Shown here one piece after another: positions 13,867-64,000 of a stretch of 64,000 nt of DNA. The translations under genes were made by a program, and so were the position numbers. The DNA is from Saccostrea echinata (Eukaryota). Numbering within the stretch: the first letter of the stretch is position 1; each line of letters begins with the position of its first letter. The stretch covers positions 4,278,001 through 4,342,000 of the forward strand of contig NW_026889754.1 in the NCBI RefSeq assembly GCF_033153115.1. The letters run 5' to 3'. The notes under the pieces are model-generated. The model did no database searches. It was not told the origin of the DNA and saw only the letters and a list, made by a program, of their open reading frames with translations.

Positions 13867-13934
13867 TATTATTCGAATTGATCTGTCAACAGTAAAAAAA
13901 ATAATTCCCCGCGATTGCGCGGGATTTCATCTAG
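13867..13934 (+). mobile_element. Canonical Helitron 3' terminus
   Basis: Hairpin cccgcg-attg-cgcggg (13908-13923) followed by CTAG|T (13931-13934). Confidence 0.6.
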
Positions 13935-44000: not shown

Positions 44001-45463
44001 AATTCATATTAGAACTTTATTTTTTACAAGCTGATAATAACCTCATTTTCACAGGTGTTGTTTTCTTTGAAATAAATATTGAAAACTGTATATAAACATA
44101 ATTTTTCCAACTGCTCACAAACAAACAACATATAAAAATACATAATATGGACAAAAGTTGGACTGGAAAAGGTGGTAATACTTTAAAATGAACACATTTC
44201 TTACATCGTACATTTTTGTTTAAAAATGGTAGTATTTCAATTTATCTGAACTCTTTAATTCCAATTTAAATAAAGAAAAAAATATTTATATATAACATTT
44301 TTAATATCTTTGTTGTAACAAAAATACTTCCATTAAAATATGATATTTCATTTTCATAAATTGTTGTAAAATAATTTGATAGCTTTATTTAGTTACAGAC
44401 ACTACAAAATCCAAATATTTAAGATTGGCTTTGGGCATTGAAAATAAATTTTTTTTTATAAACTTCTGAACTATTAGAAATCAGATTTAAATGATTTATT
44501 AAATACAAAGTATATGAAAATTAGATATTATTTCAAGTAAAAACAATTTACTTGCAGAACTAATGCTAATAGGAAAGAAATATTCAATTTAGAAAATTCT
44601 GAAACTTCCTGTTTTCACATAACTATATAACTAAAGTGCAGAACAAAAGTTCTCTAACTCACTAACGTTTTATGAAAACTATTTAGATTTTGATACACTG
44701 GTCAACGAAGTCAATCAACCGAATTTAAGGGTTACGGACACTACACGAGACTGTCTGGCAAAAATGAACTTTTTCATAGTCTTTTGCCATCTTCTTTTTC
44801 ATTTTTTTTTTCGTTTCAGTTTCTCCTGATTTTTTGATTCTTCGGGTCTCAACTCCATCTGATAAAAGCATACCATAACCAATATACTTTGTCTATTTTA
44901 ATTTATACACTTGTAACGTTATACAGGTATCATGTGCAAGTAGAAAAGTCAAATCTTAAAGAATGTAGCTCACTTATTTCTTTAATGTATTTTTATTTTA
45001 TTCTGTGAAGCATTCTGTTTTTCTTCAAACAGTTAAATATACAATACTTAATCTGAACTTGGTGTAATTTTAGTTGTTTTCCTACGAGTCTTTTCCTACG
45101 TAAGTGGCCTTGAATCCTAAAGCAGTTATTTTTTTGCACTGTTCAGACATGAAGCATTAGTGAACATATGATTTACAGGAAATTGATGGAAATCAGCGGC
45201 GTTATTATTACGATGCATGCTCCTGGAAAAAGTACTGGAATGCATTCATAGGTCTTGGATTTTCCACTTCCTGTTTTGGTACCGACATAAACATGTTCTG
45301 TCCATTACAGCCTTCACAGCTTTCTTTTGATTCGGTCTGAGCGAGGGAATATTAAATCTTCTGCAAATATCGGCTTCGATCTTATCTTCCATGGACGAGC
45401 CTTTTTTTGATGGTTACTGCTCATGTTATGTAAACTCTGATTGGCTGAAAGAAGTATAAGGAG

Positions 45464-45630
45464 CCTGGATGGCCGGGTCAACTGAGTGCACTTTTGTCCC
45501 CCCAGATCCTGGATGGCCGGGTCAACTGAGTACACTTTTGTCCCCCCCCCCCCCAGATCCTGGATGGCCGGGTCAACTGAGTACACTTTTTTTAGTGCCC
45601 CAGATGACCGGTTCAATCTAGTATACACAC
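45464..45630. repeat. Subterminal GC-rich tandem repeat (~44-bp unit, 3 copies plus 1 degenerate)
   Basis: cctggatggccgggtcaactgagt.cactttt starts at 45464, 45508 and 45559. Confidence 0.9.
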
Positions 45631-45861
45631 TGGAAAAACCCAAGTAAAAAAAAAGGGGGGGTCTACGTTTAATCTACGTTTTGTGCTGACTCAGGCCTAG
45701 GCAATACACAATCTTGGCATCGATTCAAGTATACCATTGTGACGTCATGTGTGTCATTCACACAGAGCAAACCTCTCTCTATTTTCTGAAAACGGAAAAA
45801 ACAATAACACAGTCAAAAGTGTGCAAGATGATTTATTCAAAGTAAAAAATGTACATAATAT

Positions 45862-46179
45862 TTACTTTTTCTTCTGGAGTTTCAGGGTCTTCTCCGTCTG
45901 GGTAGCAGGAAGTTTCCTCTTGTTGTTAGCCTGCTTTTGATCCTGACTAGTCTCTATTTTCTTTTCTAGATTTCCAATCTCATTCATTATCACTCCTCTA
46001 AACACACGAATCTCAGTAATCATGTCTTCTTTAAACTCACAAATAGTCTGTTGAAGTATCTCCATTACATTGGTCATTTGATCTAAGATATCGCATATCA
46101 AACTTCTTTCATTTCCTTCAATACTATCCTGTGTCTCTGGTAAGGTTGCAGGTAAATTCATGGACTTTTCCTCTGCCAT
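45862..46179 (-). CDS. Small coiled-coil hypothetical protein divergent from PolB
   Basis: 105-aa ATG ORF with heptad-like acidic helix; AATAAA follows on the minus strand (~45831-45836). Confidence 0.55.
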   Translation of the reverse strand: MAEEKSMNLPATLPETQDSIEGNERSLICDILDQMTNVMEILQQTICEFKEDMITEIRVFRGVIMNEIGNLEKKIETSQDQKQANNKRKLPATQTEKTLKLQKKK

Positions 46180-46320
46180 ATTTTTTTACGTCTGTCTAGT
46201 ACCAAGTGCCCACTAAGACTGATCCTAAAATTTCCAGCTCTGCTTTTGTACGTACTGTGTACGTCTCAATACTTAGTCTTGGATCAGCGAGCTACCTAGG
46301 CATTGTGACTTCATACACTG

Positions 46321-46355
46321 TATAAATACAGCCTTTCTCCGACTTTCAGCTCATT
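46321..46355 (+). promoter_or_regulatory. TATA + Inr promoter of PolB
   Basis: TATAAATA at 46321, TCATT at 46351, ATG at 46376. Confidence 0.65.
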
Positions 46356-46375
46356 TTGTTGTCAGATCTATCAAG

Positions 46376-49300
46376 ATGAATTTTGATAGTGCCTTGAAAC
46401 AATTGTTACATGCACAACAACTTATGAGATGGAAAAAACGGGAGAAAGAATTAGAAAGAATTATTTCTCGACAGAGAACCAGAGAATTAGTTCTCAGGAA
46501 AAAAAATGCCAGATTAATGGAAAGATTAAAGAGAGCCAAAGCCAACCGAGCTCAACATCTACAAGTTTTAAGGAATCTACCTGAAGAAGAACTACCCTCT
46601 CCGTCTTCATCACCACCTCATTCACCACCACCACCACCGAAGCCAAAGACCATTTCCCAGTATTACCAACTGAGACTCAATAAAGCTAAGCATTCCAGAA
46701 AATTTAAAGCTAAAGAAGATGTCTACAGTGTGAATTTTAAAGAATTTCCAGAGGAGGAAAACAGAGGCTTTGTTCAGCGATTATTTAGAGACATGCTACA
46801 GAATGTCAAATATCAAATGCAGTGTAACCCTAACGATTATGTACGCCTGAACATTCACCACCCTTCTCTGGATTCCGACATTTGGTGCGAGTTTACGCAA
46901 TGTAAACATTTAAACGAGGACGTCATTTTAGACAAAATAGAAGCCGTGCAACAATCCAAGAAAGATTTTAAACTGGGAGACGGGTCTATGGAATTCGACA
47001 TGTTTCACGTCAAATATCCAGAAGGCAGTGGTGGACAGAATACCAAACACCTGATGGTCAACAAGGACAGTTTTAAGAAAAATAAACGATGCATCGTTCA
47101 GATCGACAATCCTTGGGATAAATTTTGTTTAGCTCGAGCCATTGTAGTCACCCGGTTACACAGTCAAAAACCGGAAAATCCAGAGAGTTTAGTTGAATGG
47201 GAAAAATTATGGAAACGCATGAGGTTAGGAGATGTAAGAGCTAATGACCAGAAAAACGAAGCTATAGCTCTCATGGAACAAGCCGGGTGTGATATTCATC
47301 AGCCTTGTGGACCCGAAGAATGGGGAAAATTACAACAGGTGTTAGCCCCTCGCTATCGACTGAAAATATTTCAGTTCAAGTCCACCTCCTCTAAACTCGG
47401 TTTAGAGCCCATATACAAAGGCGTCGGAGATGGAACTTGTTTAAATGTTTTGTTAGACCATCATCATTACAATGCTATTTTGTCTATGCCAGGTGTGACA
47501 GGCAATCAATACTATTGTGATCATTGCGATGTGGGCTACAGGAAAATCACAGACCATCGTACCAAGTGTCCTTACCGATGTTCCTTTTGTTTAACGGACA
47601 CGCCCTGCCCTCCAGACGGGAGCCACATTCAATGTTATCAATGCCAGGGATTTTTTCAGAGCAGAACTTGCTACGAAAACCATTTACGACCTCACAGTAA
47701 GAATACGGCCACAACAGTATGCAGTTTAATGGGACGATGCGACCATTGTGAGAAATGGATGCCTAAAATGTTACTCCCTCATCATCATTGCGGAGGACAG
47801 AAACAATGTAAGATCTGTAAGAAAACTGTAGACACGGATCATCAGTGCTACGTTCAACTGAAGCCTGAGAAAAAGAAAAAGAAAGGCAAAGAGACATTAC
47901 AGTTTTATATTTATTTCGATTTCGAATGTACACAAGAAAACGGCATCCACGTCCCTAATTTATGTGTGGCACACCGCGTATGTCAGCATTGCGGACACTT
48001 ACCCATAGAAGATCCCTGTCCTCACTGTCGACACATGGGACCCCGTCAACACGTGTTTAAAGGGCCAGATACCTTAAAACACTTCATGGACTGGTTATTA
48101 CAACCCGACACAGGCAATAAGAATTCCGCCTTATTACACGACGAGGCCATCATCATTGCCCACAATTTCAAAGGATATGATGGACAGTTCATTTTAAATT
48201 ACCTGGTGCATTTCGCCTGCATGACGCCTACAGTCATCATGAACGGCAGTAAAATCTTATCCATGCAAATCTGCGGATTGAAATTCATCGACTCGTATAA
48301 TTTTTTACCTTTTGCTCTGTCTAAAATGCCCTCTGCTTTCGGATTCACCGAACTGAAAAAAGGGTATTTCCCTCACTTTTTTAATACAGAACAGAACCAG
48401 AATTATGTGGGGCCTTATCCACCGGCGGCATTCTACAATCCGGACGACATGTCTATAAGTGGACGACAGGCTTTTTACCAATGGTACGAACAACAAGCCG
48501 GAAAAGTGTTTGATTTCCAGAAGGAATTTTTAGACTATTGTATTTCAGACGTCGATATTTTACGACGATGCTGTGCTCAGTTTCGAGCCACTCTCAAGAC
48601 CTTAGTCCATGTAGACCCCTTCCAGGAATCCATCACTTTTGCCAGTGCGGCCAATTTAGCTTACCGTCGAGGATTCATGCCCGAAAATACCATTGCCATC
48701 ATTCCCAACATGGGGTATCAGCCTGCGCGTCAATATTCCGCCAAAGCCTGTCGTTGGTTAAGCTGGATGAGTCACCAGAGCGGATCTCACATACGACATG
48801 CTAGAAACGGAGGAGAAGTGAAGATCGGAAGTTATACTGTAGATGGATACCAGGAAGCTACTCGTACCATCTACGAATTTTACGGATGCTATTGGCACGG
48901 ATGCCCTACTTGCTATCCCAATTTACAGACCGAAACTCATCCTCACCGGACACAATTTACTTACCAGGAATTACACGAGGAAACCTTAAGGAGGAATACG
49001 GTCTTAGAGGAAATGGGGTTTTCCGTACATAGTATCTGGGAACACGATTTCGATCAACAAGTACAAAGAGAGGTGGCATTACAGAATTATGTACGAGATC
49101 TGGACATTCCAGATCCTTTGAACCCCCGAGAAGCCCTGTACGGAGGCCGCACCAATGCTACACGCTTGTATTGTGAGGAGGGGGACATGAGATACGTGGA
49201 CGTCTGTTCCTTATACCCTTACGTGTTAAAACACAGACCTTTTCCCTTAGGCCATCCTCAGATCATTACAGACCAATTCCAGGACGTGAGAACTTATTTC

Positions 49301-50455
49301 GGCCTCATTCACTGTCGGGTCTTACCACCCCGAGGGCTTTATCACCCCGTTTTACCTTATCGCACAGGAGGCAAGTTATTATTTCCATTATGTCAAACTT
49401 GTGCGGAACGACAGGACTCTACTTCTAAACATCGATGTCAACACACAGACCAGGAACGCAGTCTTACAGGTACTTGGGTGACTACAGAATTACATAAAGC
49501 CTTAGACATGGGATATACCTTAGAGCGGATTTACGAGGTTTGGCATTTTCCAGAAAGCAGTCAAGATTTATTCAGATCTTACATCGATACCTTCTTAAAG
49601 ATCAAACAGGAAGCCTCTGGATTCCCACCTGATTGTCAGACGGAGGAACAGAAACTAGATTACATTCGTAAAGTCATAGACAGAGAAGGCATTAGAATGG
49701 ACCTATTAAGTATAGAAAAAAATCCGGTGCGAAGAACCATAGCCAAACTCTTTTTAAATTGCCTGTGGGGAAAATTCGCTCAACGCCTGTTATTACCTAA
49801 AACTCGATACATGACCGAAGAAGAGGAATTACAGCAACTCTTACAAGATTCGACCATTGACATCAAAGGGCTAGAACTCTTAGAAAATAAAGAGCAGCCC
49901 GAATCGGACATAATGCTGGTGAATTATCAAGAGAAACAGGAATTCGTAGAAGAGTGTCCCTTCGGAAACGTGGTACTTGCCTGTTTCACTACCGCTCATG
50001 CCCGATTACACCTCTATGAGACTTTACAACCTTTAGGAGATCGGGACCTTTATTTCGATACGGACAGTATCATATACCAACATAAGGAGGGACAATTTAA
50101 TCCTACCCTTGGCCACAGTTTAGGAGAATGGACCGACGAATTAGACGGGGACCACATTATTAAATTCATGTCAGGAGGTCCTAAAAATTATGCTTACCTC
50201 ACCGCCAAGGGAAATTCCGTGTGTAAAGTCAAAGGATTGACTCTTAATTATCGGGCTTCCAATATCGTGTCACCAGAGACATTAGAAAAAATGCTCAAGA
50301 AAGAAACGGATGAAATCCAAGTCTCGTATCCTTACAAAATACAGACGACTCGTCAACATGAAGTCAAGACAGTACCTTTAGAAAAACAATATAGAATTGT
50401 CTATGATAAGAGACAGATCATGAATGATTATAATACTCTACCTTATGGTTATTAA
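46376..50455 (+). CDS. polB: Protein-primed family B DNA polymerase, 1359 aa, uninterrupted
   Basis: ExoI YFDFE, ExoII HNFKGYD, ExoIII YCISD; Pol motifs DVCSLYP, KLFLNCLWGKF, YFDTDS and KNY. Confidence 0.96.
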   Translation: MNFDSALKQLLHAQQLMRWKKREKELERIISRQRTRELVLRKKNARLMERLKRAKANRAQHLQVLRNLPEEELPSPSSSPPHSPPPPPKPKTISQYYQLRLNKAKHSRKFKAKEDVYSVNFKEFPEEENRGFVQRLFRDMLQNVKYQMQCNPNDYVRLNIHHPSLDSDIWCEFTQCKHLNEDVILDKIEAVQQSKKDFKLGDGSMEFDMFHVKYPEGSGGQNTKHLMVNKDSFKKNKRCIVQIDNPWDKFCLARAIVVTRLHSQKPENPESLVEWEKLWKRMRLGDVRANDQKNEAIALMEQAGCDIHQPCGPEEWGKLQQVLAPRYRLKIFQFKSTSSKLGLEPIYKGVGDGTCLNVLLDHHHYNAILSMPGVTGNQYYCDHCDVGYRKITDHRTKCPYRCSFCLTDTPCPPDGSHIQCYQCQGFFQSRTCYENHLRPHSKNTATTVCSLMGRCDHCEKWMPKMLLPHHHCGGQKQCKICKKTVDTDHQCYVQLKPEKKKKKGKETLQFYIYFDFECTQENGIHVPNLCVAHRVCQHCGHLPIEDPCPHCRHMGPRQHVFKGPDTLKHFMDWLLQPDTGNKNSALLHDEAIIIAHNFKGYDGQFILNYLVHFACMTPTVIMNGSKILSMQICGLKFIDSYNFLPFALSKMPSAFGFTELKKGYFPHFFNTEQNQNYVGPYPPAAFYNPDDMSISGRQAFYQWYEQQAGKVFDFQKEFLDYCISDVDILRRCCAQFRATLKTLVHVDPFQESITFASAANLAYRRGFMPENTIAIIPNMGYQPARQYSAKACRWLSWMSHQSGSHIRHARNGGEVKIGSYTVDGYQEATRTIYEFYGCYWHGCPTCYPNLQTETHPHRTQFTYQELHEETLRRNTVLEEMGFSVHSIWEHDFDQQVQREVALQNYVRDLDIPDPLNPREALYGGRTNATRLYCEEGDMRYVDVCSLYPYVLKHRPFPLGHPQIITDQFQDVRTYFGLIHCRVLPPRGLYHPVLPYRTGGKLLFPLCQTCAERQDSTSKHRCQHTDQERSLTGTWVTTELHKALDMGYTLERIYEVWHFPESSQDLFRSYIDTFLKIKQEASGFPPDCQTEEQKLDYIRKVIDREGIRMDLLSIEKNPVRRTIAKLFLNCLWGKFAQRLLLPKTRYMTEEEELQQLLQDSTIDIKGLELLENKEQPESDIMLVNYQEKQEFVEECPFGNVVLACFTTAHARLHLYETLQPLGDRDLYFDTDSIIYQHKEGQFNPTLGHSLGEWTDELDGDHIIKFMSGGPKNYAYLTAKGNSVCKVKGLTLNYRASNIVSPETLEKMLKKETDEIQVSYPYKIQTTRQHEVKTVPLEKQYRIVYDKRQIMNDYNTLPYGY

Positions 50456-50522
50456 AAACATACTGTATTTCAAAATGTGTTTTTATTTTATGTGGGGAAA
50501 ACCCTTAAAAAATGAAGGGGGT

Positions 50523-50558
50523 TATAAAAAGGGGGCAAAAATATTTTAACACTTCAGT
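50523..50558 (+). promoter_or_regulatory. TATA + Inr promoter of IAP
   Basis: TATAAAA at 50523 and TCAGT at 50554; implies the true ATG is 50560. Confidence 0.6.
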
Positions 50559-50559
50559 C

Positions 50560-51102
50560 ATGGCTGTTCATTCTAGGGAGCCAGAGGGGGTTCCTCATTA
50601 CCCTAACTATGCTCTGCTCTTAAAGAGAGAAGCTACCTTTAAAGAGGGATGGCCCGAGTCTTTAAAAGGATTATTACCCAACCTAGCCAAAGCCGGATTT
50701 TATTACAGGGGAGTGGGTGATAAGACCATCTGTTTTCATTGTGGTATGACTTTAAACTGCTGGAAACCCACAGACGATCCTTATGTAGAACATGCTTATT
50801 GGAACCCTAATTGTCCTTACATCAATACCTACAAAGGACGTGAGTGGGTGATGATCGTATTCATTAACCATTTACTCCGGGTGGGATACAAAGTTTCACC
50901 TGAAATTAAACCTCTACTAGAGCAAACCTTTACAGAGATTCAGGCCACAGGAAAATGTCACATTTGTTTAGAGGGAGAATTACAAATGGCTTTACTCCCT
51001 TGTGGACACATATGTTGCTGTTCATTATGTGCTCCCACCTTCCGGTATTGCCCCATCTGTCGATCCGATGTGAAGAGAACCCAACGTATATTTCTGTGTT
51101 AA
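50560..51102 (+). CDS. iap: Inhibitor of apoptosis: one BIR domain + C-terminal RING (ORF track starts at 50512)
   Basis: BIR: REATF..W..LAKAGFYY..D.TICFHC...W...DDP..EH..WNPNC. RING: CHIC...LPCGHICCCSLC...CPICR. Confidence 0.92.
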   Translation: MAVHSREPEGVPHYPNYALLLKREATFKEGWPESLKGLLPNLAKAGFYYRGVGDKTICFHCGMTLNCWKPTDDPYVEHAYWNPNCPYINTYKGREWVMIVFINHLLRVGYKVSPEIKPLLEQTFTEIQATGKCHICLEGELQMALLPCGHICCCSLCAPTFRYCPICRSDVKRTQRIFLC

Positions 51103-51144
51103 ATAAAAAGGATTGAAACCCTATTTTTCTCTTCATTTATCATC

Positions 51145-51786
51145 ATGCAACCTGACGAGACACTCCCGTCTTTTCAATTAAAACACGAATTTACCATGGT
51201 GGTAGCAGGACCATCTAAATCGGGGAAAACGGAATTTGTTAAGAAATTAGTGGAAAATTTACATTGGATTACCCCCATGCCACAAAAAATTGTCTGGTGT
51301 TATCGAGAATGGCAACCTGCTTATACTTCTTTAACAGATCAGATCTCCTTCATTCGAAATATTCCAGAAGACGATGAGAAATTAGTAGCCAATTTAAGTA
51401 TTCCTCACTTACTCATTTTTGACGACATGATGGGAGGAAAAGCCATCGAATCGATCGTGGATTGGTTTACCCGTAAAGCGCATCATCGGAATACCAGTGT
51501 GATTTACATTACTCAGAATTTATTTGATCGGGCACCACAACATCGCACTATTAGTTTGAATGCTCATTATTTAGTGTTGTTTAAAAATCCCAGAGACAAA
51601 TCTCAAATCAGTGTCTTGAGTCGACAGTTAGCCTTACCTCATTTGATGTCGGCCTATCAAGAAGCCACCAGTGTTCCTCACGGGTATCTCCTGGTTGACT
51701 TGAATCCACGCACCCCAGACGAATACAGATTGAGAAGTCGATTGTTTGAATTGTTAACTATACACATGCCACAAGAGTATAAATAA
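51145..51786 (+). CDS. A32/FtsK-like genome packaging ATPase
   Basis: Walker A GPSKSGKT, Walker B LIFDD, HHRNTSVIYITQN and FKNPRD. Confidence 0.92.
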   Translation: MQPDETLPSFQLKHEFTMVVAGPSKSGKTEFVKKLVENLHWITPMPQKIVWCYREWQPAYTSLTDQISFIRNIPEDDEKLVANLSIPHLLIFDDMMGGKAIESIVDWFTRKAHHRNTSVIYITQNLFDRAPQHRTISLNAHYLVLFKNPRDKSQISVLSRQLALPHLMSAYQEATSVPHGYLLVDLNPRTPDEYRLRSRLFELLTIHMPQEYK

Positions 51787-51831
51787 AAATGTACCAACAT
51801 TACACTTGTCATTTATCATTATACAGTCGTC

Positions 51832-52779
51832 ATGGGTCGACCTCTCTCAGCCAAGAGTAAATTAGTGAAAACGTTACGACGTTTACAGCGGGAGCGAGAT
51901 CCTGCCAAGCGAGCCCATTTAATCGAATTAGGGCGTAAAGCCTTATTGAATTGGTTTGCTATGGGAGCTCGAAATTTGATACGTGGGGTCTTACCTATCA
52001 ATAAACAGACTCAAAAGTTTATTAATAATCATCGTCAAGATTTAAGTATCATAGCCGATAAGTCGGCGAGTGATCAAGACAGAAAAAATGCCATTTTAAA
52101 ACGCGGAGGAGCCGGATTTCTAGGCGGAGTCATCATTCGTCATTTATTTAAATGGAATGCACCTAAGAAACGACGTGTTCGTCGTTTAAAAAGTGTGGTA
52201 GTACGAGTCAATAATAAGAAACAAAGAGTATTTCCAGATTGGATGGTGCGAGTAGGAGGAGCAGCTCAAAAGACCAGAAAGAAGAGAAAACCTCCTAAGA
52301 GAAAACCTCAAAAGAGAAAACCTGCTGCTCAAAGAAAAGGTGGTAGAAAGAAAAAAACGACTCCCAAAACTCCAGCTCAACGAAAAGCCATGCCTGAAAG
52401 TTTAAAAAACGAAATCAATCAGTATTATAAAGAACAAAGACAAAAAACTATTGGGGAGTTATTAAAAAAACAAGCTGAAATGAGAATGGATCGTCCTATG
52501 GGACCCATAGGCAGTCAAAGAGCTCCCGATTTAGAAATGTTTCCTCAAGTCAATGTGGGAATTCCCTCTCCTAGAATTAAAGTACCCATTCACACTCCTA
52601 GAATTAAAGTACCCATTCACACTCCTAAAATAGCACGCTTTCAACCTCTGACCGCTTCTACACCTCAACTTCCTAAAGGAATGAGATATAAATGCCGATA
52701 TTGTTCCAAATTCTACGTCACCCAGAAAAATAGAGACAAACACGAGAAGGCCAAACACGACATGTATGCTCCTCCTTGA
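51832..52779 (+). CDS. Highly basic putative virion core protein with C-terminal C2H2 zinc finger
   Basis: K/R-rich centre; YKCRYCSKFY...HEKAKH; N-terminal part resembles the next ORF; TATA at 51778 and Inr at 51809. Confidence 0.7.
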   Translation: MGRPLSAKSKLVKTLRRLQRERDPAKRAHLIELGRKALLNWFAMGARNLIRGVLPINKQTQKFINNHRQDLSIIADKSASDQDRKNAILKRGGAGFLGGVIIRHLFKWNAPKKRRVRRLKSVVVRVNNKKQRVFPDWMVRVGGAAQKTRKKRKPPKRKPQKRKPAAQRKGGRKKKTTPKTPAQRKAMPESLKNEINQYYKEQRQKTIGELLKKQAEMRMDRPMGPIGSQRAPDLEMFPQVNVGIPSPRIKVPIHTPRIKVPIHTPKIARFQPLTASTPQLPKGMRYKCRYCSKFYVTQKNRDKHEKAKHDMYAPP

Positions 52780-52829
52780 GAGTATAAAAAGGGGAGAAAC
52801 CTGGGACATGTCCTCATTTTAACCCCAGG

Positions 52830-53228
52830 ATGGCTAAGAAGAAGAAGAAAAGAGGCTGTTCTACACGATTAAAACCTCATTGGCCTCTTTTAAGAGTGTT
52901 ATCGGACCCTCACTATTCCTCTCCATTAAAGACGGGTATTTTAAAACATTGTTCTGGAGATTGTATTCTCAAAATCTGCGAGATCGTGTACAACCTATTA
53001 AAAGGAGTGTTACCTCCTAGTTCGGCTCATAAACGAAAACTAGCTCCTAAGAAACACATCTTCAGGAGACTGGTCAAACCTCAATCTGTCCAGAAACGAC
53101 GAGCTTTATTACTTCAACAAAAAGGAGGAAACATTTTACCCCTATTAATCTCAGCAGCACCTTTATTGTTGGATGCCGGTCAATCCGTCTATAAAGTCCT
53201 CAAGAAGAAGAAGAAGAAAAAAATATGA
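52830..53228 (+). CDS. Small basic Polinton protein (core-protein-like)
   Basis: ICEIVYNLLKG.LP ... QKGG + hydrophobic helix; TATA at 52783 and Inr at 52814. Confidence 0.75.
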   Translation: MAKKKKKRGCSTRLKPHWPLLRVLSDPHYSSPLKTGILKHCSGDCILKICEIVYNLLKGVLPPSSAHKRKLAPKKHIFRRLVKPQSVQKRRALLLQQKGGNILPLLISAAPLLLDAGQSVYKVLKKKKKKKI

Positions 53229-53980
53229 GTCGTAAAATGGTGTTAGTTCCTGAAGTCTTATTAAATGATCTCAAGGCCAAATTACCCAAACCTCCGGAAT
53301 TTCAATCCACCATCAGTTTAGGTCAGGAATTGGACGAGATTACAAGACGTGAAGATTTAACCCCAGAAGAAAAAGTTGCTTTATATGGCCAGGAACTTCA
53401 TCGATATAGGAATTATTTACAACAAGCTAGACAGGAACCTATTTCTAAACTGAAAATTCCGGCAGCAGCAGCAGCTCCAGCCCCAGCAGCAGCAGCATTA
53501 CCAGCAGCTGAAATTGACGATGAAATTCTTGAAACAGTGAATAAAAACATGAAAAGAAAAGCTGGATTATTATTAAATCATTTAAAGAAAAACCCTAAAG
53601 TATTAACTTGGAATAAAGAAGGTGAAATTAGTTATCGAGGTCAAAAAATTCCCGATTCTAACATTGTGGATTTAATGGCTGATAGTATGAGATCTCAGTC
53701 TCGTAAACATCATCCGGTTACTACAGGATTAGAACAATTTGCTCAAGCTTTAAAAGAAACGCGTACTCCTCTGGAATACGTGAGCAATGGAAACCTTATA
53801 AAAGCCATGCAGAGACCTGGAAAAATCAGTACTCCTAAAAGTCACGAAATAGACGATAGTGGATTTTCTTCCTTTTTTGACACTCCAGTGAGTAGACCCA
53901 TAGAAGATCGAGGAACCGTCATTAAAAAACCCATTTCAACTCCTGTAGGGACAAGGGTAGGATCCAGGTATAGTCCTTAG
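53225..53980 (+). CDS. Polinton hypothetical protein; probably extended to 54099 before a 1-nt deletion
   Basis: KMVLVPE start and LTWNKEGEI...SNIVDL core; the shifted frame continues to WLSLPKI*, overlapping the integrase ATG. Confidence 0.75.
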   Translation: MSRKMVLVPEVLLNDLKAKLPKPPEFQSTISLGQELDEITRREDLTPEEKVALYGQELHRYRNYLQQARQEPISKLKIPAAAAAPAPAAAALPAAEIDDEILETVNKNMKRKAGLLLNHLKKNPKVLTWNKEGEISYRGQKIPDSNIVDLMADSMRSQSRKHHPVTTGLEQFAQALKETRTPLEYVSNGNLIKAMQRPGKISTPKSHEIDDSGFSSFFDTPVSRPIEDRGTVIKKPISTPVGTRVGSRYSP

Positions 53981-54095
53981 CTCGAAAGAAATTAAAAGCC
54001 CAAGTCGAAGAAGACATTAGAGCCTTTAAAGCTAAAAAGGAAGAAGAAAAGAAATTAGGACAAATCGACGAAAATTGGCTTTCATTGCCTAAAAT

Positions 54096-55181
54096 ATGAA
54101 AAAGAAACAAGTAGAAGATATTTTAAAAGAGATTTATTATGATCCTAAAAGAGGGTACGGAGGAATACAAGCTTTGTATCGTCAGGTCAAACCTTTAGGA
54201 ATTTCCCTGAAAAAGATTCGAGAATGGTTAAAAGAGCAAGATACTTATACTTTACATAAACCCATTCAAAGAAAATTCCGGAGACAACAGACTAGAGTGA
54301 CCGATATAGACGAACAATGGCAATTAGATTTAGCAGATGTGTCCAGTTTAAAGAAACATAATGATGGATATACGTTTTTATTATGTGCCATTGACGTCTT
54401 ATCTAAATATGCCTGGGTAGTGCCTTTAAAACAGAAAACAGGAAAAGAAATGATTCGAGGATTACAAGAGATTTTTCAACAAGACGGTCGACGTCCCGTC
54501 CGCATTCAATCCGATCAAGGAAAAGAATTTACCAATCGAGAATTCTTACAAGCTTTTAAATCCATTCATTTTTTTACTACTCGTAATACGGACACTAAAG
54601 CCAGTATCGTGGAACGATTTCAGCGTACACTCAAAGCACGCATGTGGCGTTATTTTACTCGTCATAAAACCAGACGGTATTTAGAAGTTTTACCGGATTT
54701 AGTGTATGCTTACAATCATACCTATCATCGGAGTATCAAAAGAGCCCCAGTTCAAGTGAATGCTTCTAATGTGTTAAAAGTCTGGAAAACTTTATATGGG
54801 ATATCGAATCGAAAACAGTTTCTTAAACCTCAGTTTAAAGAAGGAGATCAGGTCCGCATCAGTAAAGCCAAACGCACATTTGAAAAAGGATATTTACCTA
54901 ACTGGACCACAGAATTGTTTACCATTTCTAAAAGAGTTCCTGGAAGGTATCCTTACGTGTATAGGGTGCAAGATTATAACGGAGAGGAATTAGAAGGGAC
55001 TTTTTACGAAAAAGAATTACAAAAGATCATTAAAAAAGACGACGTGTACGAAGTGGAGGAAATCTTGGGGTATAAAAAGCGACGCGTCGGGAAAAAAATC
55101 ATTCAAGAAGTCAAAGTTCGGTGGAAAGGATATCCCCCTAGTTTTGATTCATGGATTCCCCAAACGGATCTCATCAAATAA
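54096..55181 (+). CDS. int: RVE (DDE) integrase with C-terminal chromodomain
   Basis: WQLDLAD, IDVLSK, QSDQGKEF, VERFQRTLK, KGYLPNWT; chromodomain YEVEEIL..VRWKGY..DSW. Confidence 0.95.
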   Translation: MKKKQVEDILKEIYYDPKRGYGGIQALYRQVKPLGISLKKIREWLKEQDTYTLHKPIQRKFRRQQTRVTDIDEQWQLDLADVSSLKKHNDGYTFLLCAIDVLSKYAWVVPLKQKTGKEMIRGLQEIFQQDGRRPVRIQSDQGKEFTNREFLQAFKSIHFFTTRNTDTKASIVERFQRTLKARMWRYFTRHKTRRYLEVLPDLVYAYNHTYHRSIKRAPVQVNASNVLKVWKTLYGISNRKQFLKPQFKEGDQVRISKAKRTFEKGYLPNWTTELFTISKRVPGRYPYVYRVQDYNGEELEGTFYEKELQKIIKKDDVYEVEEILGYKKRRVGKKIIQEVKVRWKGYPPSFDSWIPQTDLIK

Positions 55182-55411
55182 CGCCTCATTGGAAATTTTG
55201 TGGAGAGAATATTCCTCGAGAAGAAATCGTTTATTTCGCCCAATTATTTATCTGTGTCTCTCTCATCGTTACCAGTGTGGTCATGTTAGCTTTACATGAT
55301 CCTAATCGAGAATATTGGATGGTGTGTGTCAGTTCTTCAGTAGGTTATATCATGCCTAGTCCTACGATGATGCATCATACCCCTAAGAAGACCACCAATA
55401 CACAGGGTTAA
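55151..55411 (+). CDS. Small two-TM membrane protein
   Basis: Hydrophobic helices IVYFAQLFICVSLIVTSVVML and YWMVCVSSSVGYIMPSP; overlaps the integrase end. Confidence 0.65.
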   Translation: MDSPNGSHQITPHWKFCGENIPREEIVYFAQLFICVSLIVTSVVMLALHDPNREYWMVCVSSSVGYIMPSPTMMHHTPKKTTNTQG

Positions 55412-55444
55412 TGTCTTTAAAAAATAGATACACCACAGAGTATT

Positions 55445-56884
55445 GTGACACTCTCCAGGGGTAGAGCTTATTATGATAATTTACTAAAATAGGATGTCAG
55501 GATGTTTTCTTTATTTACTCTTGTCAGGATTTGTTTTAAGTCCAGAATAACCAGACTGACTTTCCAGCTTAAATAAACAGACTTTTCAGTTTACAGGTTT
55601 ATTGTTCATATATAACCATCTCAATGACATAAATACACACCATATGTCAATACAACACACAAAGATTCACTTTGTTATACGTACACTACAACATCAATAC
55701 AACCTTGGCTCTATTTTATAATTCCAAATTATAGAAATAGGGGGATCACTTTATCCGAAGTATATATCCTGGGAATAACCCTTGATATATATATATTTAT
55801 GTGAAATTAAACTGTTATGCCTGAAGAATTATATGAAGTCTCTTAAAATAATCAAGAGATCTCAATAATGATCAACGAAGTCCAGAATTCAGAGAAATAA
55901 TCTCTAAATAATCTTAGATAATAATATTAGTTGACTTTTATGAAAATAAAGTTGTTCCTAGTTCTATTCCTATTAAAATTCAGATGGTAATTAATTAAGG
56001 GATTAACCCATTAATTAAATACGCTAATTCCTAGTCCTTTTTCTATAAAAACTGCGAAATTCGTTAATTTGCACTAATTAGGTGATTAATTAAGGGATTA
56101 ACCCGTTAATTAGATTACCGTTTATCCAAAGGCAGAAGGAATAACCTTCTATTTCTTTACACTTACTTCCGTGATTTTGGTAACGTGTATATGCCAAAAG
56201 TAAAGCTGGAAAAAGTGCCGGAGAAAGTCTACCGGCTGTTTATATAGACTTCTCAATCCACCGGGGTAACACACGCGCAAGGTTGGAAACCACCGGAGAC
56301 ACTATCGGTGCTTCCATATAAAATAATTAATACAACTTTAATTATACATAAAGTAACATAACTGTAAACATTTTACTACAAAGAATCTTCGTCACTCAAA
56401 TAAATGTCACAACCCGGAAGAAATGGCAATATACATTCAAAAAGACCGCCAGATGAAAATAGACAGTGACCTAAGGTCAAATGCATAAATTACAACTCTA
56501 GCGCGCCATACAATCAGTTCCGGTAAAATGGCAGTTCACATGTGACGAAGGTAAATAGAACATGAAAACTTTGTTATTTACATGACATATCAGTAACGTT
56601 TAACAATATCCCTGTAACACTGTGATAAAAGAAGTTTATGCAATGTAAATATGTTATAAACAACAATGCATCAAGTCATGAACATTCATATATACCACGT
56701 TATTTACAAACATCGAGCACATGTTAATTTAGGGGTCGTATAACAACACAAAATATTACTAAATCAGCTGATCACAGAAAACGATCAACCGTTTGCATAA
56801 ATGATTACTACAAGTATTATTATTTATATCAACATGACAATGCCATAACATAATGTATGCCTATCAGAGACACATGGCTCCACA
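55445..56884 (-). repeat. LTR sequence: one long 3' LTR, or two abutting LTRs (55445-56410 and 56411-56884)
   Basis: tgtgaca at 55445, tgtcaca ending at 56411; minus-strand PPT aaaaaggggagtaaaa directly followed by TGTGG at 56884. Confidence 0.6.
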
Positions 56885-57294
56885 TTTTACTCCCCTTTTT
56901 AAGTTTCAATGTCCTCATGAAACTATACATATTAACACAAAATATTTATGCAACATTATAAACATTAATAACATATCAACATCAAACAACATATTTTTCT
57001 TAAATTGGGACAATATGCTAATTCAAATAACAGTAAGGTTCAATGAATTAAAGTGTTGTAAACCTTTAAATAAGCACTAGGTCTTGCCAAGTAAAAATAT
57101 TTGTAATTTACAAATACAACACCATCCAACTCACTCAAAATTCTTCATGTATAGGTGTAATGTACAATAATTTCAACCATCTTAGTAACAAAAAAAATGA
57201 TTCTTGAAATATATGAAGACAAGAGTGTACACTTAAAATAAGACTATAATCATTACTAACTCATTTTTACACTCTTATATACACCTTATGATAT

Positions 57295-58182
57295 TTAATT
57301 TTTCTTTACTACAAAGGACTTAACTCTTGGGTTCCTTGGCGATGCTCTGCTAGATCTTTCAAACCACCTTCTTCTGTACCCTGACACTGCTATTCTTCTA
57401 TCCCTTTCTCTCCTCTCCATGCTTCTGAAACATCCAACAAGTTCATCCGATATCATGGTGTTTTTCCTTATGCCAGTATTAAGTGAGGTGAGGAGCTGAT
57501 TCTGTTGTGATAGTAATTTCTGTAGGTCTGTCATGGCTGTGAGAATGTTTTGTAGAATAGGAGTATCAGAGGTTTCCTTGTGGATAACGCTTTCCTCAGG
57601 TTCAGGGACATCAAATTCCGTGGAATCTTCTGCTAAAATATCCTTTAACAGGTCATATTCTTCCTGATCATTAAGTAAGGGTAAGTCATCTGTCCAACAT
57701 GGTGTCTCTTTAGCAGGTTCTGGCTTAGTTTGGTTGTTCTTGCATGTTTCCGCAGGTTCTCCATTAGTAATAGTAGCAGGTTTATCCTTGTTTATAATGT
57801 TGGATGGAATGGATGTCACCTGGACCCTTTGACTCCACACCTTCTTGCTTTCTGTTTCTGACAACCTTTGCATCAGGGTTCCATCTATTGGGCGGGGGTT
57901 AGGGTTCTTAACCAACATCTCCTCAGGTGCTGGAGTGGCTTTTCCATTCTTTGTCAATTCTAGGATAGCAGTTTTATGGGGTTTGTACCCCTTCAGGTGT
58001 CTGGTCAGGTCCCTCTCTGTCCTAGACATGTATTGGCACAAAGTGCAATAAAATGGCACTTCCTCTGGTTTAAGATGCGTTTTATAAATGTGCGCCTCCA
58101 CGTATCTCTTCTCCCCTCTGTATGTTAAGCACTTTAGACATTCATATGCAAATCCCCTTTTGTCTATTTTCTCCATCTCCAT
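57295..58182 (-). CDS. Gypsy accessory ORF3 with two C2H2 zinc fingers and a coiled coil, 295 aa
   Basis: YECLKC...HIYKTH and FYCTLCQY...HLKGYKPH; lies between pol and PPT; acceptor-like tttcttgttag 9 nt before the ATG. Confidence 0.75.
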   Translation of the reverse strand: MEMEKIDKRGFAYECLKCLTYRGEKRYVEAHIYKTHLKPEEVPFYCTLCQYMSRTERDLTRHLKGYKPHKTAILELTKNGKATPAPEEMLVKNPNPRPIDGTLMQRLSETESKKVWSQRVQVTSIPSNIINKDKPATITNGEPAETCKNNQTKPEPAKETPCWTDDLPLLNDQEEYDLLKDILAEDSTEFDVPEPEESVIHKETSDTPILQNILTAMTDLQKLLSQQNQLLTSLNTGIRKNTMISDELVGCFRSMERRERDRRIAVSGYRRRWFERSSRASPRNPRVKSFVVKKN

Positions 58183-58459
58183 AGTTGTAAGCTAACAAGA
58201 AAGATGAAGCTCATGAATATAATGAACATTCATGTACTATTCAAATATACTATATAAACTTTCCTAACATATTTATTTTAAGTTTTAAAAGGGCATCCCA
58301 GGATATTAACAGATCATACACCAGGTAATAAAGGGAAGCAATCAGCCAAGGTTATATTTTACAAAACATGGCATACATTCAGATACACGATAGTAGAAGA
58401 CAATCTACTTAATACGTCGTATAGTAAACAAATGTTTAAGTGGGTAATCTTGTAGTATG

Positions 58460-58488
<29 letters not shown>

Positions 58489-58490
<2 letters not shown>

Positions 58491-61400
58491 ATATATCTTC
58501 CTTCCATGGCGGGTGATTATCTCCCTCATATTTCTTCAGTTTGTCTACATTCAGACATTTCTGGTTTCCCTTTTGATCCATCTGTATCCTGTATAACAAA
58601 TCGTTGATCTTTTCTTTAACTACAACTGGACCCAAGTATAAGGGTTGGAGCTTCTTGCTTTCTCCTGGTTTTCTAGTTTCATTCAGAATCATGACAGAAT
58701 CCCCAGGTTTGAAATGTTGGTCCTTACTCTGTTGATTATATTGGTCCTTTTGCCTGTTGTGAGCTTTATCTAGATGTTTTCTTGCAAGTTGGTGTGCTTT
58801 TGTAAGTTTGGCTCTCAACTTTTCAGCGTATTCCCCTACATTCAACAGCTCTTGTACATCGTTTGTTCTGCCATATATTAAATCGACTGGTAATCTTACT
58901 TCCCTCCCTAACATGATCAAATTCGGTGTCATCTTTGTGCTCTCTTGTGTGCTAGCTCTGTAGGCTGCAGTCAGGTATTGCAGATTGAGGTCCCATTCTG
59001 TACCATCCCCTCTAATAAAGGATTTAATCATTTGGATCAATGTTTTGTTAAATCTTTCTACAAGTCCGTTGCATTTAGGGTTCCTAGGACTGGTTCGTGT
59101 CTTTTGTATTTCTAATAACTTGCAGACTTCCTGGAATAATTCTGCTTCAAAACATCTCCCCTGGTCTGTGTGAATAGATAAAGGACATCCAAATTTTGTG
59201 ATAAACTCTCTGCATATTACATCTGCACAGGTCAAGGCTGTTTGATCTGGGACTGGATAAGCCTCAGCCCATTTACTGAAATGGTCAGTTAGGACAAGAA
59301 TATACTGATTTCCTCTAGGAGTTTCTGGTAATGGTCCTACTAAGTCAATAGATATTCTGTCGAGCGGTGCTCCAACACGCATATCTCCTAAAACAGCTCG
59401 AGGTTTTCGGTAAACAAACTTCATTCGGGAGCATACATCACACTTACAGATCCATAGGTTTACATCCTCCCTCATTTCAAACCAGTAAAACCTCTGTTGT
59501 AGTTTCCTTTTTGTTTTCTTTTGGTCTAAATGTCCTCCAAGTAGACTATTATGTGTCAACCGTAAAACTTCAGATTTCATGCTGTCGGGAACCATGAACT
59601 GAGCATGTTTTGAGAGTCCATCTTTAGTATGGTACTCTTTGTACAAAATTCCATCTCGTATGAACAGGGATGACCATAAATGCCAGTAATGACGTAGCGC
59701 TGGACTTTCAGTTACAATGGTTTTATAATCGGGACGTTGATTCTTCTTTACCCATCTCGCAACCTCTTTCAAAGTATTATCCTCATTTTGAAGTTGAGCT
59801 AATTCTTGTGTTCCATATAGTCCAAAACTGGTAAGTGGTTGACATAGAGCTGTTGATCTGGTGTTTATTCTGTTGACCTTTTGTGGTATGTCAGACTTAT
59901 CTCCTAGACTAGATTTGATTTCCTGTTCCATCGACACACTTAGATTTGGTCCTATCATTGTTTGGGACTTTCTTTTACATTTTTCACAGGGTCCACACTT
60001 CAGTGATTCAAGCATATCTGCATTACAACAGTTACATTCTCTTGGATTACAGATGCGAGACATAGCATCAGCATTTTGATGCTTGGTTCCTGGTCGGTAT
60101 TCAACAACAAAATCAAATTGTGACAAAATCTCGATCCATCTGGCTACCCTTCCTTTTGGTTCACGTAGTTTAAACAGCCATACTAACGCTTGATGATCTG
60201 TCCTGATTTTAAATTTTCTGCCCAATAAATACTGACGGTAATATTCTACAAAATAGCGGATTGCTAGAAGTTCCTTGTCTGTCACACAGTAGTTTGATTC
60301 AGCTTTGTTCAGTGTTCTGCTTCCATAAGCTATTACTCTCTCCCTTCCTTCTTGTTCTTGGCTTAAGACTGCTCCAATTGCACATTCGCTGGCATCAGTA
60401 TCCAGGATGTATGTTCCTTGATCCGTGGGATAGGCCATTACTTCAGAACTAACAAGTGCTTCCTTTAAGGATTGAAAGGCTGTCTGACATTTACCGTCCC
60501 AAATAAACTGAACATTTTTCTTGGTCAGATTTACCAATGGTCTTACAATATTTGAGAAACCTTGAATGAACCGTCTATAGTAACTTCCCATGCCTAAGAA
60601 CTGTCGGACCTCTGTAACATTTTTAGGTACTGGGCATGTAAGTATTTTACTGATGTTGTCTGGATTTGGTCGTACTCCCTTTTCATTGATTACATGACCA
60701 AGAAAACAAACTTCTTCCTGTAGCAATTCACATTTTTCTGGTTTTAGTTTCAGACCTGCTGCTCTTATCCTGTCAAGTACATCTTCTACTCTTTTCATCT
60801 GTTCCTCGAAATTTCTCCCAAATACTATAATATCATCAATGTATATCAGGCAGGTCAACCACTGCAGTCCACTTAGAGCTATCTCCATGACTCTTTGGAA
60901 TGTTGCTGCTGAGTTGCAAAGGCCAAATGGCATGGACGTAAATTCATATAAGCCATACTTTGTCACGAATGCAGTCTTGGGTATATCTTCCTCCCTAACT
61001 GGTATCTGAAAGTATCCTAAGTTAAGTCAAATGTAGAGAAAAGCTTTGCTCCACTTACAGCGTCCAAACAATCTTGTATCCGTGGGAGCGGAAATGCATC
61101 AATTTTTGTTACTTCATTTACTTTTCGATAATCTATGCATGGCCTTATTTTGCCGTTCTTCTTCCGAACAAGAACAATAGGTGATGACCAAGGTGAATTC
61201 GATTCTCTTATCACCCCTTGTTTCTTCATTTGTTCGACTGCTTTCTTCTCTTCATCTGACAAGGCAATAGGAACACGGCGTGGATGTTGCTTAATTGGTT
61301 TGGCATCTCCTGTATCTATATTGTGTTCATACAGCTTGGTATTTCCTATATCATTTTCATTCATGGAAAATACTGCCTGGAATTTGATAAGGACATCTTT

Positions 61401-62366
61401 AATCACTTTTTGTTCTTCTGGAGTTCTGCCTATGATAGATTTATCATACAGTGTCTGAAGGTGGGGTGGTACAGTCCTATTCTCTAGAGAGTGGGAAGAT
61501 TCGATGTCCTGTTGGACTGGTTCTGTTTGTTGTACTTTCCTAGAAATGGCCTCTACATTATTCAGATCTGTTGTCAGCACTTCAGCTTCTTCTAAATGGC
61601 CTATGACTTCACATTTCTTTATCTTAGCAGGTGTAGAAAATGGGTTGAGCACTCTTACTGCTACTCCTTGGCCTTCTGGACTTTGACATACACTCACTAC
61701 TTCATGGGCTACTGCAACTCCACAGCGTGTTACAAATAAATCAGATGGTTCTAGTACGTAATCTACATTCTGGTCAAAATCTGTCTCCTTGACATCAGGT
61801 TCTACTCTTATTATAGCCTCACTCTCACTCGGAATATGGTAATCTTCACAAGCCTTTACTTTTAAAATTTTATCAGGCATTCCTACCCGGAACCCTGGAA
61901 TCCTTCGACCCTGCCAGTCTATCACTCCTTGTGATAGTAGTATATCTACTGGTCCGCCTGGGCCATTTTGCAATATATCCATTCCCAACAAACCCTCGTC
62001 AGAAATGTCCGCTACAACTACCTCCTGTTGTAGTTTCTCATCACCAAGTTCGACTGAAAATACCGCTTTACCATATTCTTGTATTTTTGAGTCATCTGCA
62101 CTCTTCAGTGGTGTGGCTGATACTAATTTTGGTCTTGTATTTTCTGGGATCTTCCCATATGTTTCATCTGATATTAAAGTTCTGGATGCTCCAGTGTCAG
62201 TAGTAAACATAACATCAACATTTTCAATTTTTCCTGGTACATAGAACCCATCATACAATGTTCTCTCTCTCCTATTGGTTACATCTAGTTGATTGTCCAG
62301 TAGAACATTTTCTTCGGTTTTCTGGGTCTCCTCTAGGCCTGCAGAGTCAACCCTCTGCCATTTAAA
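58489..62366 (-). CDS. pol: Gypsy pol (protease, RT, RNase H, integrase) with a 1-nt frameshift near 61018
   Basis: DTGA, CIDYRKVN, MPFGL, YIDD, DTDAS, TDHQAL, H..H..CDVC, IDLVGP, TDQG and VERFN. Confidence 0.93.
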
Positions 62367-64000
62367 GTACTGCTGACTTCATCAGTTTGAGTCTCTTCTG
62401 TCCTCTGCCTTGGTTTAAATTCTCTAGCTCTTGGGTTAAGTTTCTCTTCTTTTGAACTTTCATGATGGCTTTTATTCCACGTGTTGTTTGGGCATTCCCT
62501 ACTGAAGTGGCCTGGTTTGTGACAAGTAAAACATAGATTTTCTGTCCAGTCTCGTTGTTTTAAATCTTGTCTGTAGTTTCTTCTTTCTGTAGTTTGTGAT
62601 CCTATTTTCCCATAGTTTCTTTTGTATTCTTCTTTTCCTGTATCTGCTCTGTGCACTCTTTTGTCTTGATTGACCCCATTATCCCCTCTGTCTGAGAGCT
62701 GTATTTTTCTTACTCTGTGATGACCACTGTTAGGACTGTTCTCACCATAGCGATTGGAGGTCTTGTATTCTATTACTTCATTATAATGCACGACATGAAG
62801 AACAGCCTCATCTATTGTCTGTGGATCTTTGTTCAACTCTACATATATGCGTGCTTGATTATCTGTAAGACCAGCTAGAAAATGAGAAACTAGATCTTCC
62901 TGCCTAGTCTCTGCATCTCTTGTAGGATGTGCTTTATCATATAATCTCTTGAGTTCTGCTGCGAATTCTTCTGGAGATTCGTATTTCAGTTGTTTCCTAT
63001 AGTTGAATTTTGTTCTATAACTTTTGCAAGATTCTATCTCTCCAAAGCGACTCTTTAATTCTTTAATTAACTGTTTATAATTCTTAAGAGTTGTCGCCTT
63101 CAGTTGACCATAAGTAAAATCTGCTTGAATTCTGGGTAAAATCTGACGTAGTCTTTCTTCATCATTCCATCCACTTAGTTCAGCTACAGCTTCAAATCGT
63201 GTGTGCCATACTGCCCAGTTTTCCTTGCCTGTATAAACTGTAGCTTAGAGGACTCTTTAGCTTTAGGTTTAAACAACTTGTTTGTAGATACTGTAGATAC
63301 ATCAGAGTTGTGATCATCCATTGACTCATCTTCTGACCCACTTGTTTCTCTTTGAACAATGCTTCTGTGATGCCTTCTATGCTTCTTTTTGTAAGACTTT
63401 GTAAGACTTTGACGGGGTTATTTCCCTTGTTGTGACTCCTGTGGTATTTGTTGCAAACATCTGCTGGCTGTTTGATCCATGATCACTGTATGCAGGACTT
63501 TTTAGTTGTTCTCTGTTGATGACTTGGGCCATATTTGTTTTGTTAGACTGGTTACCATGGTGATTAGTTGAGCTCTCTGGGCGACCTATCAAACTTTCTC
63601 CTCCTCCCTCTGTTTGATGTGTCATAGTTTTGACTGCTGCATCCAAAACAGACTGCATGGATTTTACAGTTGATGTCATAGTAGTCATAAAAGACTTCAT
63701 AGTGTCCACGAGATCAATCTGACCTCTACTGGGCAGAATACAGGGCTCACCCATAGTACTCTGACCAACGTTCTGTTCATCAAGGAGAGGATCCACGGTG
63801 CAGGTATCTATACCATGTAGCTGGTTCACCATTTGATGCATGACCGGATTTCCAGTCATATTGCATCTTGGACTATTTCTGTGGATTGGGGAGTTCCTGT
63901 TTGATGGATTAATTGTGGGCATTCTATTTTGACGTATTGTAGGAGGAGTTATCTTCCCTTTGTCATCTTCATCAGTGCTCTCATCTGTAGCATGCACTTC
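62333..64000 (-). pseudogene. gag: Gypsy gag, frameshifted
   Basis: Capsid-like YTGKENWAVW..RFE and ESPEEFAAELKRLYDKA; zinc knuckle CFTCHKPGHFSREC; frame broken at ~63240-63380. Confidence 0.85.

Follow-up and report, generated by a model that had tools for sequence, protein, structure and literature searches.

Background

Polintons (Mavericks) are inserted by an integrase with a 6-bp target-site duplication (TSD), replicate by protein priming from terminal inverted repeats (TIRs), and are packaged by an ATPase into jelly-roll capsids that a protease matures. We describe here an oyster Polinton, apparently interrupted by a Gypsy retrotransposon and carrying a gene for an inhibitor of apoptosis (IAP), in 64,000 nucleotides of Saccostrea echinata DNA (NCBI RefSeq assembly GCF_033153115.1, contig NW_026889754.1, positions 4,278,001 to 4,342,000, forward strand). 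This whole stretch is called the window, and positions are counted from its first letter.

The closest described systems are vertebrate Mavericks and adintoviruses. According to Barreat and Katzourakis (2021, PMC8097293), vertebrate Mavericks share a module of protein-primed family B DNA polymerase (pPolB), ATPase, PM and PZ, followed by a module led by the integrase. The oyster element has the same layout, with the genes on the same strand as described there for the Xenopus tropicalis Maverick. In contrast to the vertebrate elements, its host is an invertebrate, it is interrupted by Gypsy, and an IAP gene, an open reading frame (ORF) of 315 codons (ORF315) and a small membrane gene stand among the core genes. 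Adintoviruses (Starrett et al. 2021, PMC8502044) combine PolB, an rve integrase and an FtsK-like ATPase, as here, and adintovirus homologues of IAP and Bcl2 have already been reported; the main text of that article contains neither 'mollus' nor 'Crassostrea', while its supplementary maps may include a mollusc. Polintons are known in bivalves as a repeat class (PMC10294476), and Mavericks are known as cargo carriers from nematodes (bioRxiv 10.1101/2022.07.12.499685).

The Polinton gene array

Judging by its genes, the element represents the left half of an adintovirus-type Polinton/Maverick. A preliminary description of this DNA had already called it a Polinton, and the Pfam identities support this. 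Eight tightly spaced ORFs occupy 46376-55411 on the plus strand with a coding share of 96.6% and a GC content of 40%, against 33% in the left flank. The earlier count of eight ORFs over about 9.5 kb holds once the minus-strand ORF of 105 aa at 45862-46179 is counted, and the single lesion then noted is indeed the sole frame lesion, in the PZ-position gene. The neighbours, which had been called heavily decayed, contain broken Helitron, DDE, reverse transcriptase (RT) and helicase frames, and 'near-pristine' is a fair description of the Polinton copy. We would not go as far as that description in calling the integration 'recent', given the broken Gypsy gag, the pol frameshift and two odd residues in the polymerase.

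Relatives are, in what follows, the best 80 of 473 confirmed matches in metagenomes, with integrase identities of 39-52%. Viral contigs contained no integrase relative (0/14 and 0/29 pattern matches) and one capsid relative, L081 (1/112). Evidence from sequencing runs consists of assembled contigs, and the runs contain only 0.10-0.17 of the window's words; they therefore represent other copies or other species. No RNA run is among those listed as holding window sequence. The PM label is assigned by gene position, after the gene order given in PMC8097293. The features are:

45450..45590, plus strand: probable left end, with a candidate terminus at 45450 and three subterminal repeats
45862..46179, minus strand: accessory ORF, 105 aa; contigs of 4/4 sequencing runs cover the region
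46376..50455, plus strand: pPolB, 1359 aa, stop-free (PF03175, E 5.9e-59)
50560..51102, plus strand: intronless IAP with one BIR and a RING, 180 aa (PF00653, E 3.5e-21; PF13920, E 2.8e-11)
51145..51786, plus strand: A32-like DNA packaging ATPase (PF04665, E 3.3e-06, above cut-off)
51832..52779, plus strand: ORF315, with a PM-like N-terminus, a basic middle and a C-terminal C2H2-like motif
52830..53228, plus strand: PM-position protein, 132 aa; matches the ORF that relatives have between ATPase and PZ (E 1e-7)
53225..54099, plus strand: PZ-position gene, frame-broken near 53965-53980; matches PZ-position ORFs (E 1e-18)
54096..55181, plus strand: retroviral-type integrase with chromodomain, 361 aa (PF00665, PF00385)
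55151..55411, plus strand: small hydrophobic protein, 86 aa, of a kind that some Polintons have between integrase and penton
55411..55443, plus strand: spacer before the expected penton gene, ending GTAT
55444..56884, minus strand: Gypsy 3' long terminal repeat (LTR), 1441 bp, TG...CA
56885..64000, minus strand: Gypsy internal region (Pfam RVT_1, RT_RNaseH, rve, aspartyl protease, zf-CCHC)
56885-56900, minus strand: Gypsy polypurine tract
58489-61026, minus strand: Gypsy RT-RNase H-integrase frame
61017-62378, minus strand: Gypsy protease/RT frame
62336-63244 and 63377 to past 64000, minus strand: Gypsy gag pieces

The polymerase has all of the motifs Exo I-III and Pol A-C. Its full-length similarity among the loci is limited to the pPolB of L072 and L079 (37% over about 1230-1270 aa). 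One residue of motif B is unlike 6/6 compared relatives, and the residue just before DTDS is unlike 5/5; at the latter (50046) contigs of 4/4 runs also differ from the window. Differences from the window in three or more runs were noted at eight pPolB sites (in 40 of 968 rows), four at codon positions 1-2 and four at position 3; this sample is too small and too selected for dating the copy. Its motifs suggest, as no more than a guess, that the polymerase is of the Beta adintovirus or group 1 class. A sequence search of the PDB gave no match for pPolB or for the major capsid protein of a relative, and the latter was compared by its predicted fold instead.

The packaging ATPase is present in 35 of the 80 integrase-bearing relative loci. 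ORF315 weakly matches the PM-position ORF of L072 (E 2e-6), and its likeness to C2H2 clusters (Atlas score 0.82) is a lead only. The PZ-position gene is open from 53225 to 53980. A further 41 codons in another frame (53974-54099) form a tail, the stop codon of which shares bases with the integrase ATG; like 38/47 related PZ ends, this tail has a motif containing Trp at its end. The DDE triad of the integrase is intact (D78, D140 and E173, invariant across 24 sequences). RefSeq proteins of Saccostrea cucullata and S. echinata share 91% identity with the integrase, which in a tree of 26 rows clusters with four Saccostrea proteins (support 96/98); by this evidence a rock oyster is very probably the host. 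Nineteen integrase residues private to the window were considered as a measure of decay and dropped, as the comparison set may be another species. The 86-aa protein, with a hydrophobic peak near residues 22-50 and a likeness to an unnamed viral cluster (Atlas score 0.94), is by its sequence a small membrane protein. The 105-aa ORF gave no Pfam match above cut-off and no PHROG match, and six window proteins had no letter-for-letter identical entry in the protein collection searched.

The IAP gene

The preliminary description passed over the IAP gene, which in our opinion is the most interesting part. The frame is readable from 50512; we put the start at Met17 (50560), which is probably the true one, because the relatives begin there. 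The zinc ligands of both domains are intact (CCHC in the BIR, and the C-terminal RING), and the closest solved structure is cIAP1 (3t6p, E 1.1e-30).

Of 25 candidates, 14 matched the IAP; 13 of these belong to Saccostrea RefSeq genes, and 12 of the 13 are named as IAPs. One cluster holds ten S. echinata RefSeq proteins called 'BIRC7-like' or 'DIAP2-like', which are 83-89% identical to the window IAP; their median mutual identity is 95%, and they lie on seven scaffolds of differing size. Of 45 relatives in clusters led by oyster proteins, the BIR ligands are conserved in 43, a second BIR is present in none, and BIR and RING fit within 170-190 aa in 23. The window IAP is of a type that is filed as a host immune gene in oyster databases. 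RefSeq 'BIRC7-like/DIAP2-like' Saccostrea IAPs as a whole have, likewise, a single BIR and a RING, are multi-copy, and are 60-89% identical to the window IAP. They and Crassostrea virginica LOC111132301, at about 180-195 aa, are annotated as host genes, whereas the gene described here lies between pPolB and the ATPase.

One of the 80 distant loci, L079, has a BIR gene beside its pPolB (L079:5272-5913) that is 33% identical to the window IAP. This locus is a complete but distant Polinton whose genes stand in a different order, and its BIR gene suggests a repeated or an ancient capture of IAP. A contig of run X3 joins the end of the polymerase to the ATPase (50457 to 51163) and skips the IAP gene, with 30 letters on the short side of the joint. 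This is too weak for a claim that IAP-less copies exist; it may be that not all members of the family carry the gene.

Baculovirus IAPs block cell death. By analogy, the BIR-RING protein probably delays the death of the host cell.

The Gypsy insertion and the junction

It had been proposed earlier that Gypsy interrupts the Polinton, and this is borne out by a minus-strand element whose 3' LTR occupies 55444-56884. Common features of Ty3/Gypsy elements are found here: the order gag-protease-RT-RNase H-integrase, an LTR with TG...CA ends, a polypurine tract and an extra 3' ORF. The latter, located between pol and the 3' LTR (57295-58182, minus strand), is an intact frame of 295 aa that encodes C2H2 zinc fingers. 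Unlike in a typical Ty3/Gypsy element, gag is broken and a frameshift lies inside pol, and the 3' LTR is the only one within the window. Given these frame breaks, Gypsy is not brand new, and the Polinton is older still. Any frame break in either element may, however, be due to a sequencing error.

The intact TG of the LTR sits exactly at the Polinton break. The LTR thus starts at 55444 and not at 55445, and the bases before it are GTAT (55440-55443) rather than the ttat or gttat given previously; GTAT is expected to be the Gypsy TSD. At the other end of the LTR, contigs of runs X1 and X2 depart from the window exactly at 56884. Most of the LTR (55785-56884) is held by one 3.9-kb X1 contig, which continues into other sequence at 56884; its depth of 158, a value for that contig alone, compares with 1-6 for Polinton pieces. 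Perhaps it represents the LTR inside an abundant transcript or repeat.

The TAATG overlap (55409-55413) and the peptide MSLKNRYTTE that follows are as the preliminary description has them. Its further claim that the insertion cuts an ORF starting at 55411 is not supported: this frame is probably not a gene, and the cut lies in a spacer. As a penton start the frame was rejected, since with its 11 residues compared to 150 penton N-termini, 65% of 200 shuffles score equally high. A related copy without the LTR is provided by a 987-nt X2 contig, which tracks the window over 54807-55441 and then has 340 letters of non-LTR sequence. Read by eye over 30 letters, its 55411 frame ends two codons beyond the junction, and in the same 30 letters a new ATG frame opens 9 nt further on with Phe as residue 7. 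In 94 penton starts the first Phe/Tyr of the start motif falls at positions 2-12, so that Phe7 is within the range. A contig of X1 departs at 55416 with 587 further letters. We take the Gypsy to have entered the spacer just upstream of the expected penton gene.

The capsid and protease genes of relatives

No match to capsid genes was found anywhere in the 64-kb window, and the single protease match in it, at 38039, is at chance level (E 0.025). The preliminary description had expected penton, major capsid and protease genes after the integrase, an expectation supported in the relatives only. There, on the same strand after the integrase, a penton-type ORF follows in 47/48 loci with at least 700 nt downstream (L054 being the one without), a major-capsid-type ORF in 25/25 with at least 2500 nt, and a protease in 13/13 with at least 3600 nt. 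Hence homologues of the window integrase do occur in capsid-encoding loci. The predicted fold of the L063 major capsid protein matches the Sputnik double-jelly-roll capsid (E 2.3e-17) and that of its penton the mavirus penton (E 8.5e-11). Three protease ORFs of relatives match Peptidase_C5, two of them above cut-off. The span from penton through PW and major capsid protein to protease measures 2945-3374 nt in eight relatives. The resulting order, integrase-penton-capsid-protease, is the one published for vertebrate Mavericks (PMC8097293).

A homologue of the 86-aa ORF lies directly 3' of the integrase in 18/80 loci. In 12 of the 14 relatives measured the penton start overlaps the end of this small ORF, and in the other two it comes at most 40 nt after it.

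The left end

Three repeats of 42-51 nt (45454-45495, 45498-45539 and 45549-45590) mark the probable left end. The candidate terminus at 45450 matches the (AGT)2 end motif in 5/6 letters, and if the element does end there, 45444-45449 would be the left copy of the 6-bp TSD. No inverted second copy of the left-end repeats, which would form the other TIR arm, is present within the 64-kb window. Three complete-looking relatives carry TIRs, and one of them, L060, starts with AGTAGT followed by repeats of about 42 nt inside the TIR, a likeness to the repeats at 45454-45590. The TIRs of L060 also hold telomere-like TTAGGG arrays (L060:127-182 and 14814-14927).

On the left the Polinton borders on a frameshifted DEAD/RecQ-like helicase gene on the minus strand (about 44700-45424; DEAD, E 0.025). 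This gene starts at an ATG at 45424, and the Polinton must therefore begin after 45424. It seems that the Polinton entered the upstream region of this decayed gene.

Interpretation and alternatives

In our opinion, the most probable explanation, which we hold with considerable but not full confidence, is that a Polinton was split by a reverse-orientation Gypsy before its penton gene, and that its capsid half was pushed downstream. The Polinton would have integrated just upstream of the decayed helicase gene, with its genes on one strand in the order pPolB, IAP, ATPase, ORF315, PM, PZ, integrase and small membrane protein; then, by the rule taken from relatives, penton, PW, major capsid, protease and the right TIR would have followed. 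Later, Gypsy would have inserted itself at 55443/55444, opposite in orientation to the Polinton genes, within the short spacer that precedes the penton ATG. The capsid/protease block of about 3 kb and the right TIR would thereby have been displaced about 10 kb downstream, beyond the end of the window, and the lost 5' flank of the helicase gene would be expected to reappear beyond the right TIR. That the capsid half survives at this locus past 64000 we regard as likely, with a little more reserve. In its intact state the element would have inserted its linear genome by the integrase with a 6-bp duplication and copied it with pPolB by protein priming from the TIRs. Packaging into double-jelly-roll capsids would have been the work of the ATPase, and maturation of the capsids that of the protease, while the BIR-RING IAP probably kept the host cell alive during replication. 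Because of the Gypsy in its middle and the broken PZ, the copy is probably inactive by itself and dead as an autonomous element.

Several points weigh against this explanation. The 5' LTR, the second TSD copy, the capsid gene and the right TIR of the locus would all lie beyond 64000, the end of the window, and none of them is seen within it. The hexamer at 45450 is weak as a left terminus, as an equal near-match occurs in 246 of 900 flank windows. The X2 continuation, with its 30 letters, does not suffice to identify a penton, and among the 150 listed of 17,658 penton profile matches no similar start was found. All 80 loci behind the gene-order rule are distant, as their integrase identities indicate, and most of the polymerase-bearing ones carry another type of pPolB.

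An alternative, which we consider unlikely though deserving of attention, is that the right half was lost, the capsid/protease block having been removed by deletion or recombination after or with the Gypsy insertion. Degradation is common in such elements (96% of vertebrate Maverick loci, by the figure given in PMC8097293), the window is crowded with nested fragments, including Polinton remnants near 14476-14721 and 41658-41943, and Gypsy is old enough to have gathered frame breaks. However, the exact LTR end at 55444 and the nearly intact state of both elements elsewhere speak against extensive rearrangement.

It is very improbable that the element belongs to a capsid-less, transposon-like Polinton lineage, in which the gene cut at 55411 would be an accessory gene of its own. 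No capsid gene of an oyster copy was seen, and a search for longer, fused integrase models returned 12 proteins, none from oysters; L054 also shows that a penton can be missing after the integrase (1/48). Against such a lineage, the packaging ATPase and the PM- and PZ-position genes are retained intact or nearly so, the X2 copy closes the 55411 frame right past the junction, and amphioxus relatives with 55-57% integrase identity have fused integrase-penton gene models. Least likely of all is an assembly chimera of two repeats, for although both parts are multi-copy and among the contigs listed none bridges Polinton and LTR, the break falls exactly on the LTR terminal dinucleotide, which chimeras need not respect, and the runs, with their small share of window words, come from other copies or species.

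Other elements in the window

A Helitron-like element, spread over more than one frame, occupies 1-4657 (plus strand; DUF6570, Helitron_like_N and PIF1 helicase). Remnants of other Polintons include a polymerase of another type at 14449-14874 (plus strand; 38% to the pPolB of L025) and a decayed Polinton-like piece at 41658-41943 (plus strand), which matches a small accessory ORF of L035 and L060 (E 1e-7). A faint ATPase remnant lies at 42351-42542 (plus strand; E 0.003). Furthermore, there are an array of palindromic AGAGATATCTCT units of about 21 nt (15521-15885), a broken DDE_1 (pogo-like) transposase (28371-29962, minus strand) and a non-LTR RT fragment (31580-32404, plus strand). The DNA at 31780-32572 recurs at 13123-13867 with 91-97% identity.

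A possible role of Polintons in the expansion of bivalve IAP genes

The nested insertion as such is ordinary, being another Polinton disabled by a retrotransposon; the IAP gene matters more. The expansion of IAP genes in bivalves has been explained by adaptation of the host to stress and disease, with retroposition as one of its driving forces (PMC8917759, PMC7831173). Witkop et al. (2022, PMC8917759) suggest retroposition in a text where the words 'Polinton' and 'Maverick' do not appear. They describe C. virginica LOC111132301 as a 588-nt intronless 'BIRC7-like' IAP gene, constitutively expressed and a suspected retrocopy, into which four near-identical genes were merged as haplotigs. In its supplement as inspected by eye, the LOC111132301 protein has the BIR-RING layout of the window IAP, but is divergent. 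The hard clam has 42 intronless IAPs that fall into a single clade, and the surroundings of its IAP genes are rich in DNA transposons (PMC7831173); the ten supplements of that article do not contain 'Maverick', 'Polinton' or 'intronless'. Mavericks are the largest DNA-transposon class of the hard clam among the table rows seen in PMC8905726.

Our own data on this point concern the proximity of IAP and integrase genes, as judged from accession order, which is a proxy and not a map. Among 29 IAP and 21 integrase accessions of S. cucullata, three IAP-integrase pairs lie within two accession numbers of each other, and both members of each pair are on contigs of identical size (30,778, 41,138 and 26,619 nt). 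Uniform placement would give 0.07 pairs, and three were reached in 6 of 100,000 trials. The remaining 26 IAP accessions have no integrase partner in a list made of the looked-up clusters only. In C. virginica, the integrase XP_022335804.1 (LOC111132300), 71% identical to that of the window, is numbered directly before XP_022335805.1, the product of LOC111132301; this pair is known by accession only. We found no link in the literature between the bivalve IAP expansion and Polintons, in a search that left most subscription journals outside.

We put forward, tentatively and at somewhat less than even chances, that a sizeable part of the expanded intronless IAPs of bivalves is a Polinton accessory gene multiplied by integration, and not host retrocopies. 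If so, this would cover the dispersed BIR-RING genes of 177-180 aa in Saccostrea as well as C. virginica LOC111132301 with its four 'haplotigs', and possibly also the hard clam's clade of 42 intronless genes, situated among DNA transposons. In that case, what is transcribed constitutively at LOC111132301 would be an endogenous viral gene. Should the intronless BIR-RING class ride in Polintons, then gene counts, 'haplotig' filtering and expression studies would have mixed viral and host genes, and the Polintons of oysters would be viruses that counter the death of their host cells.

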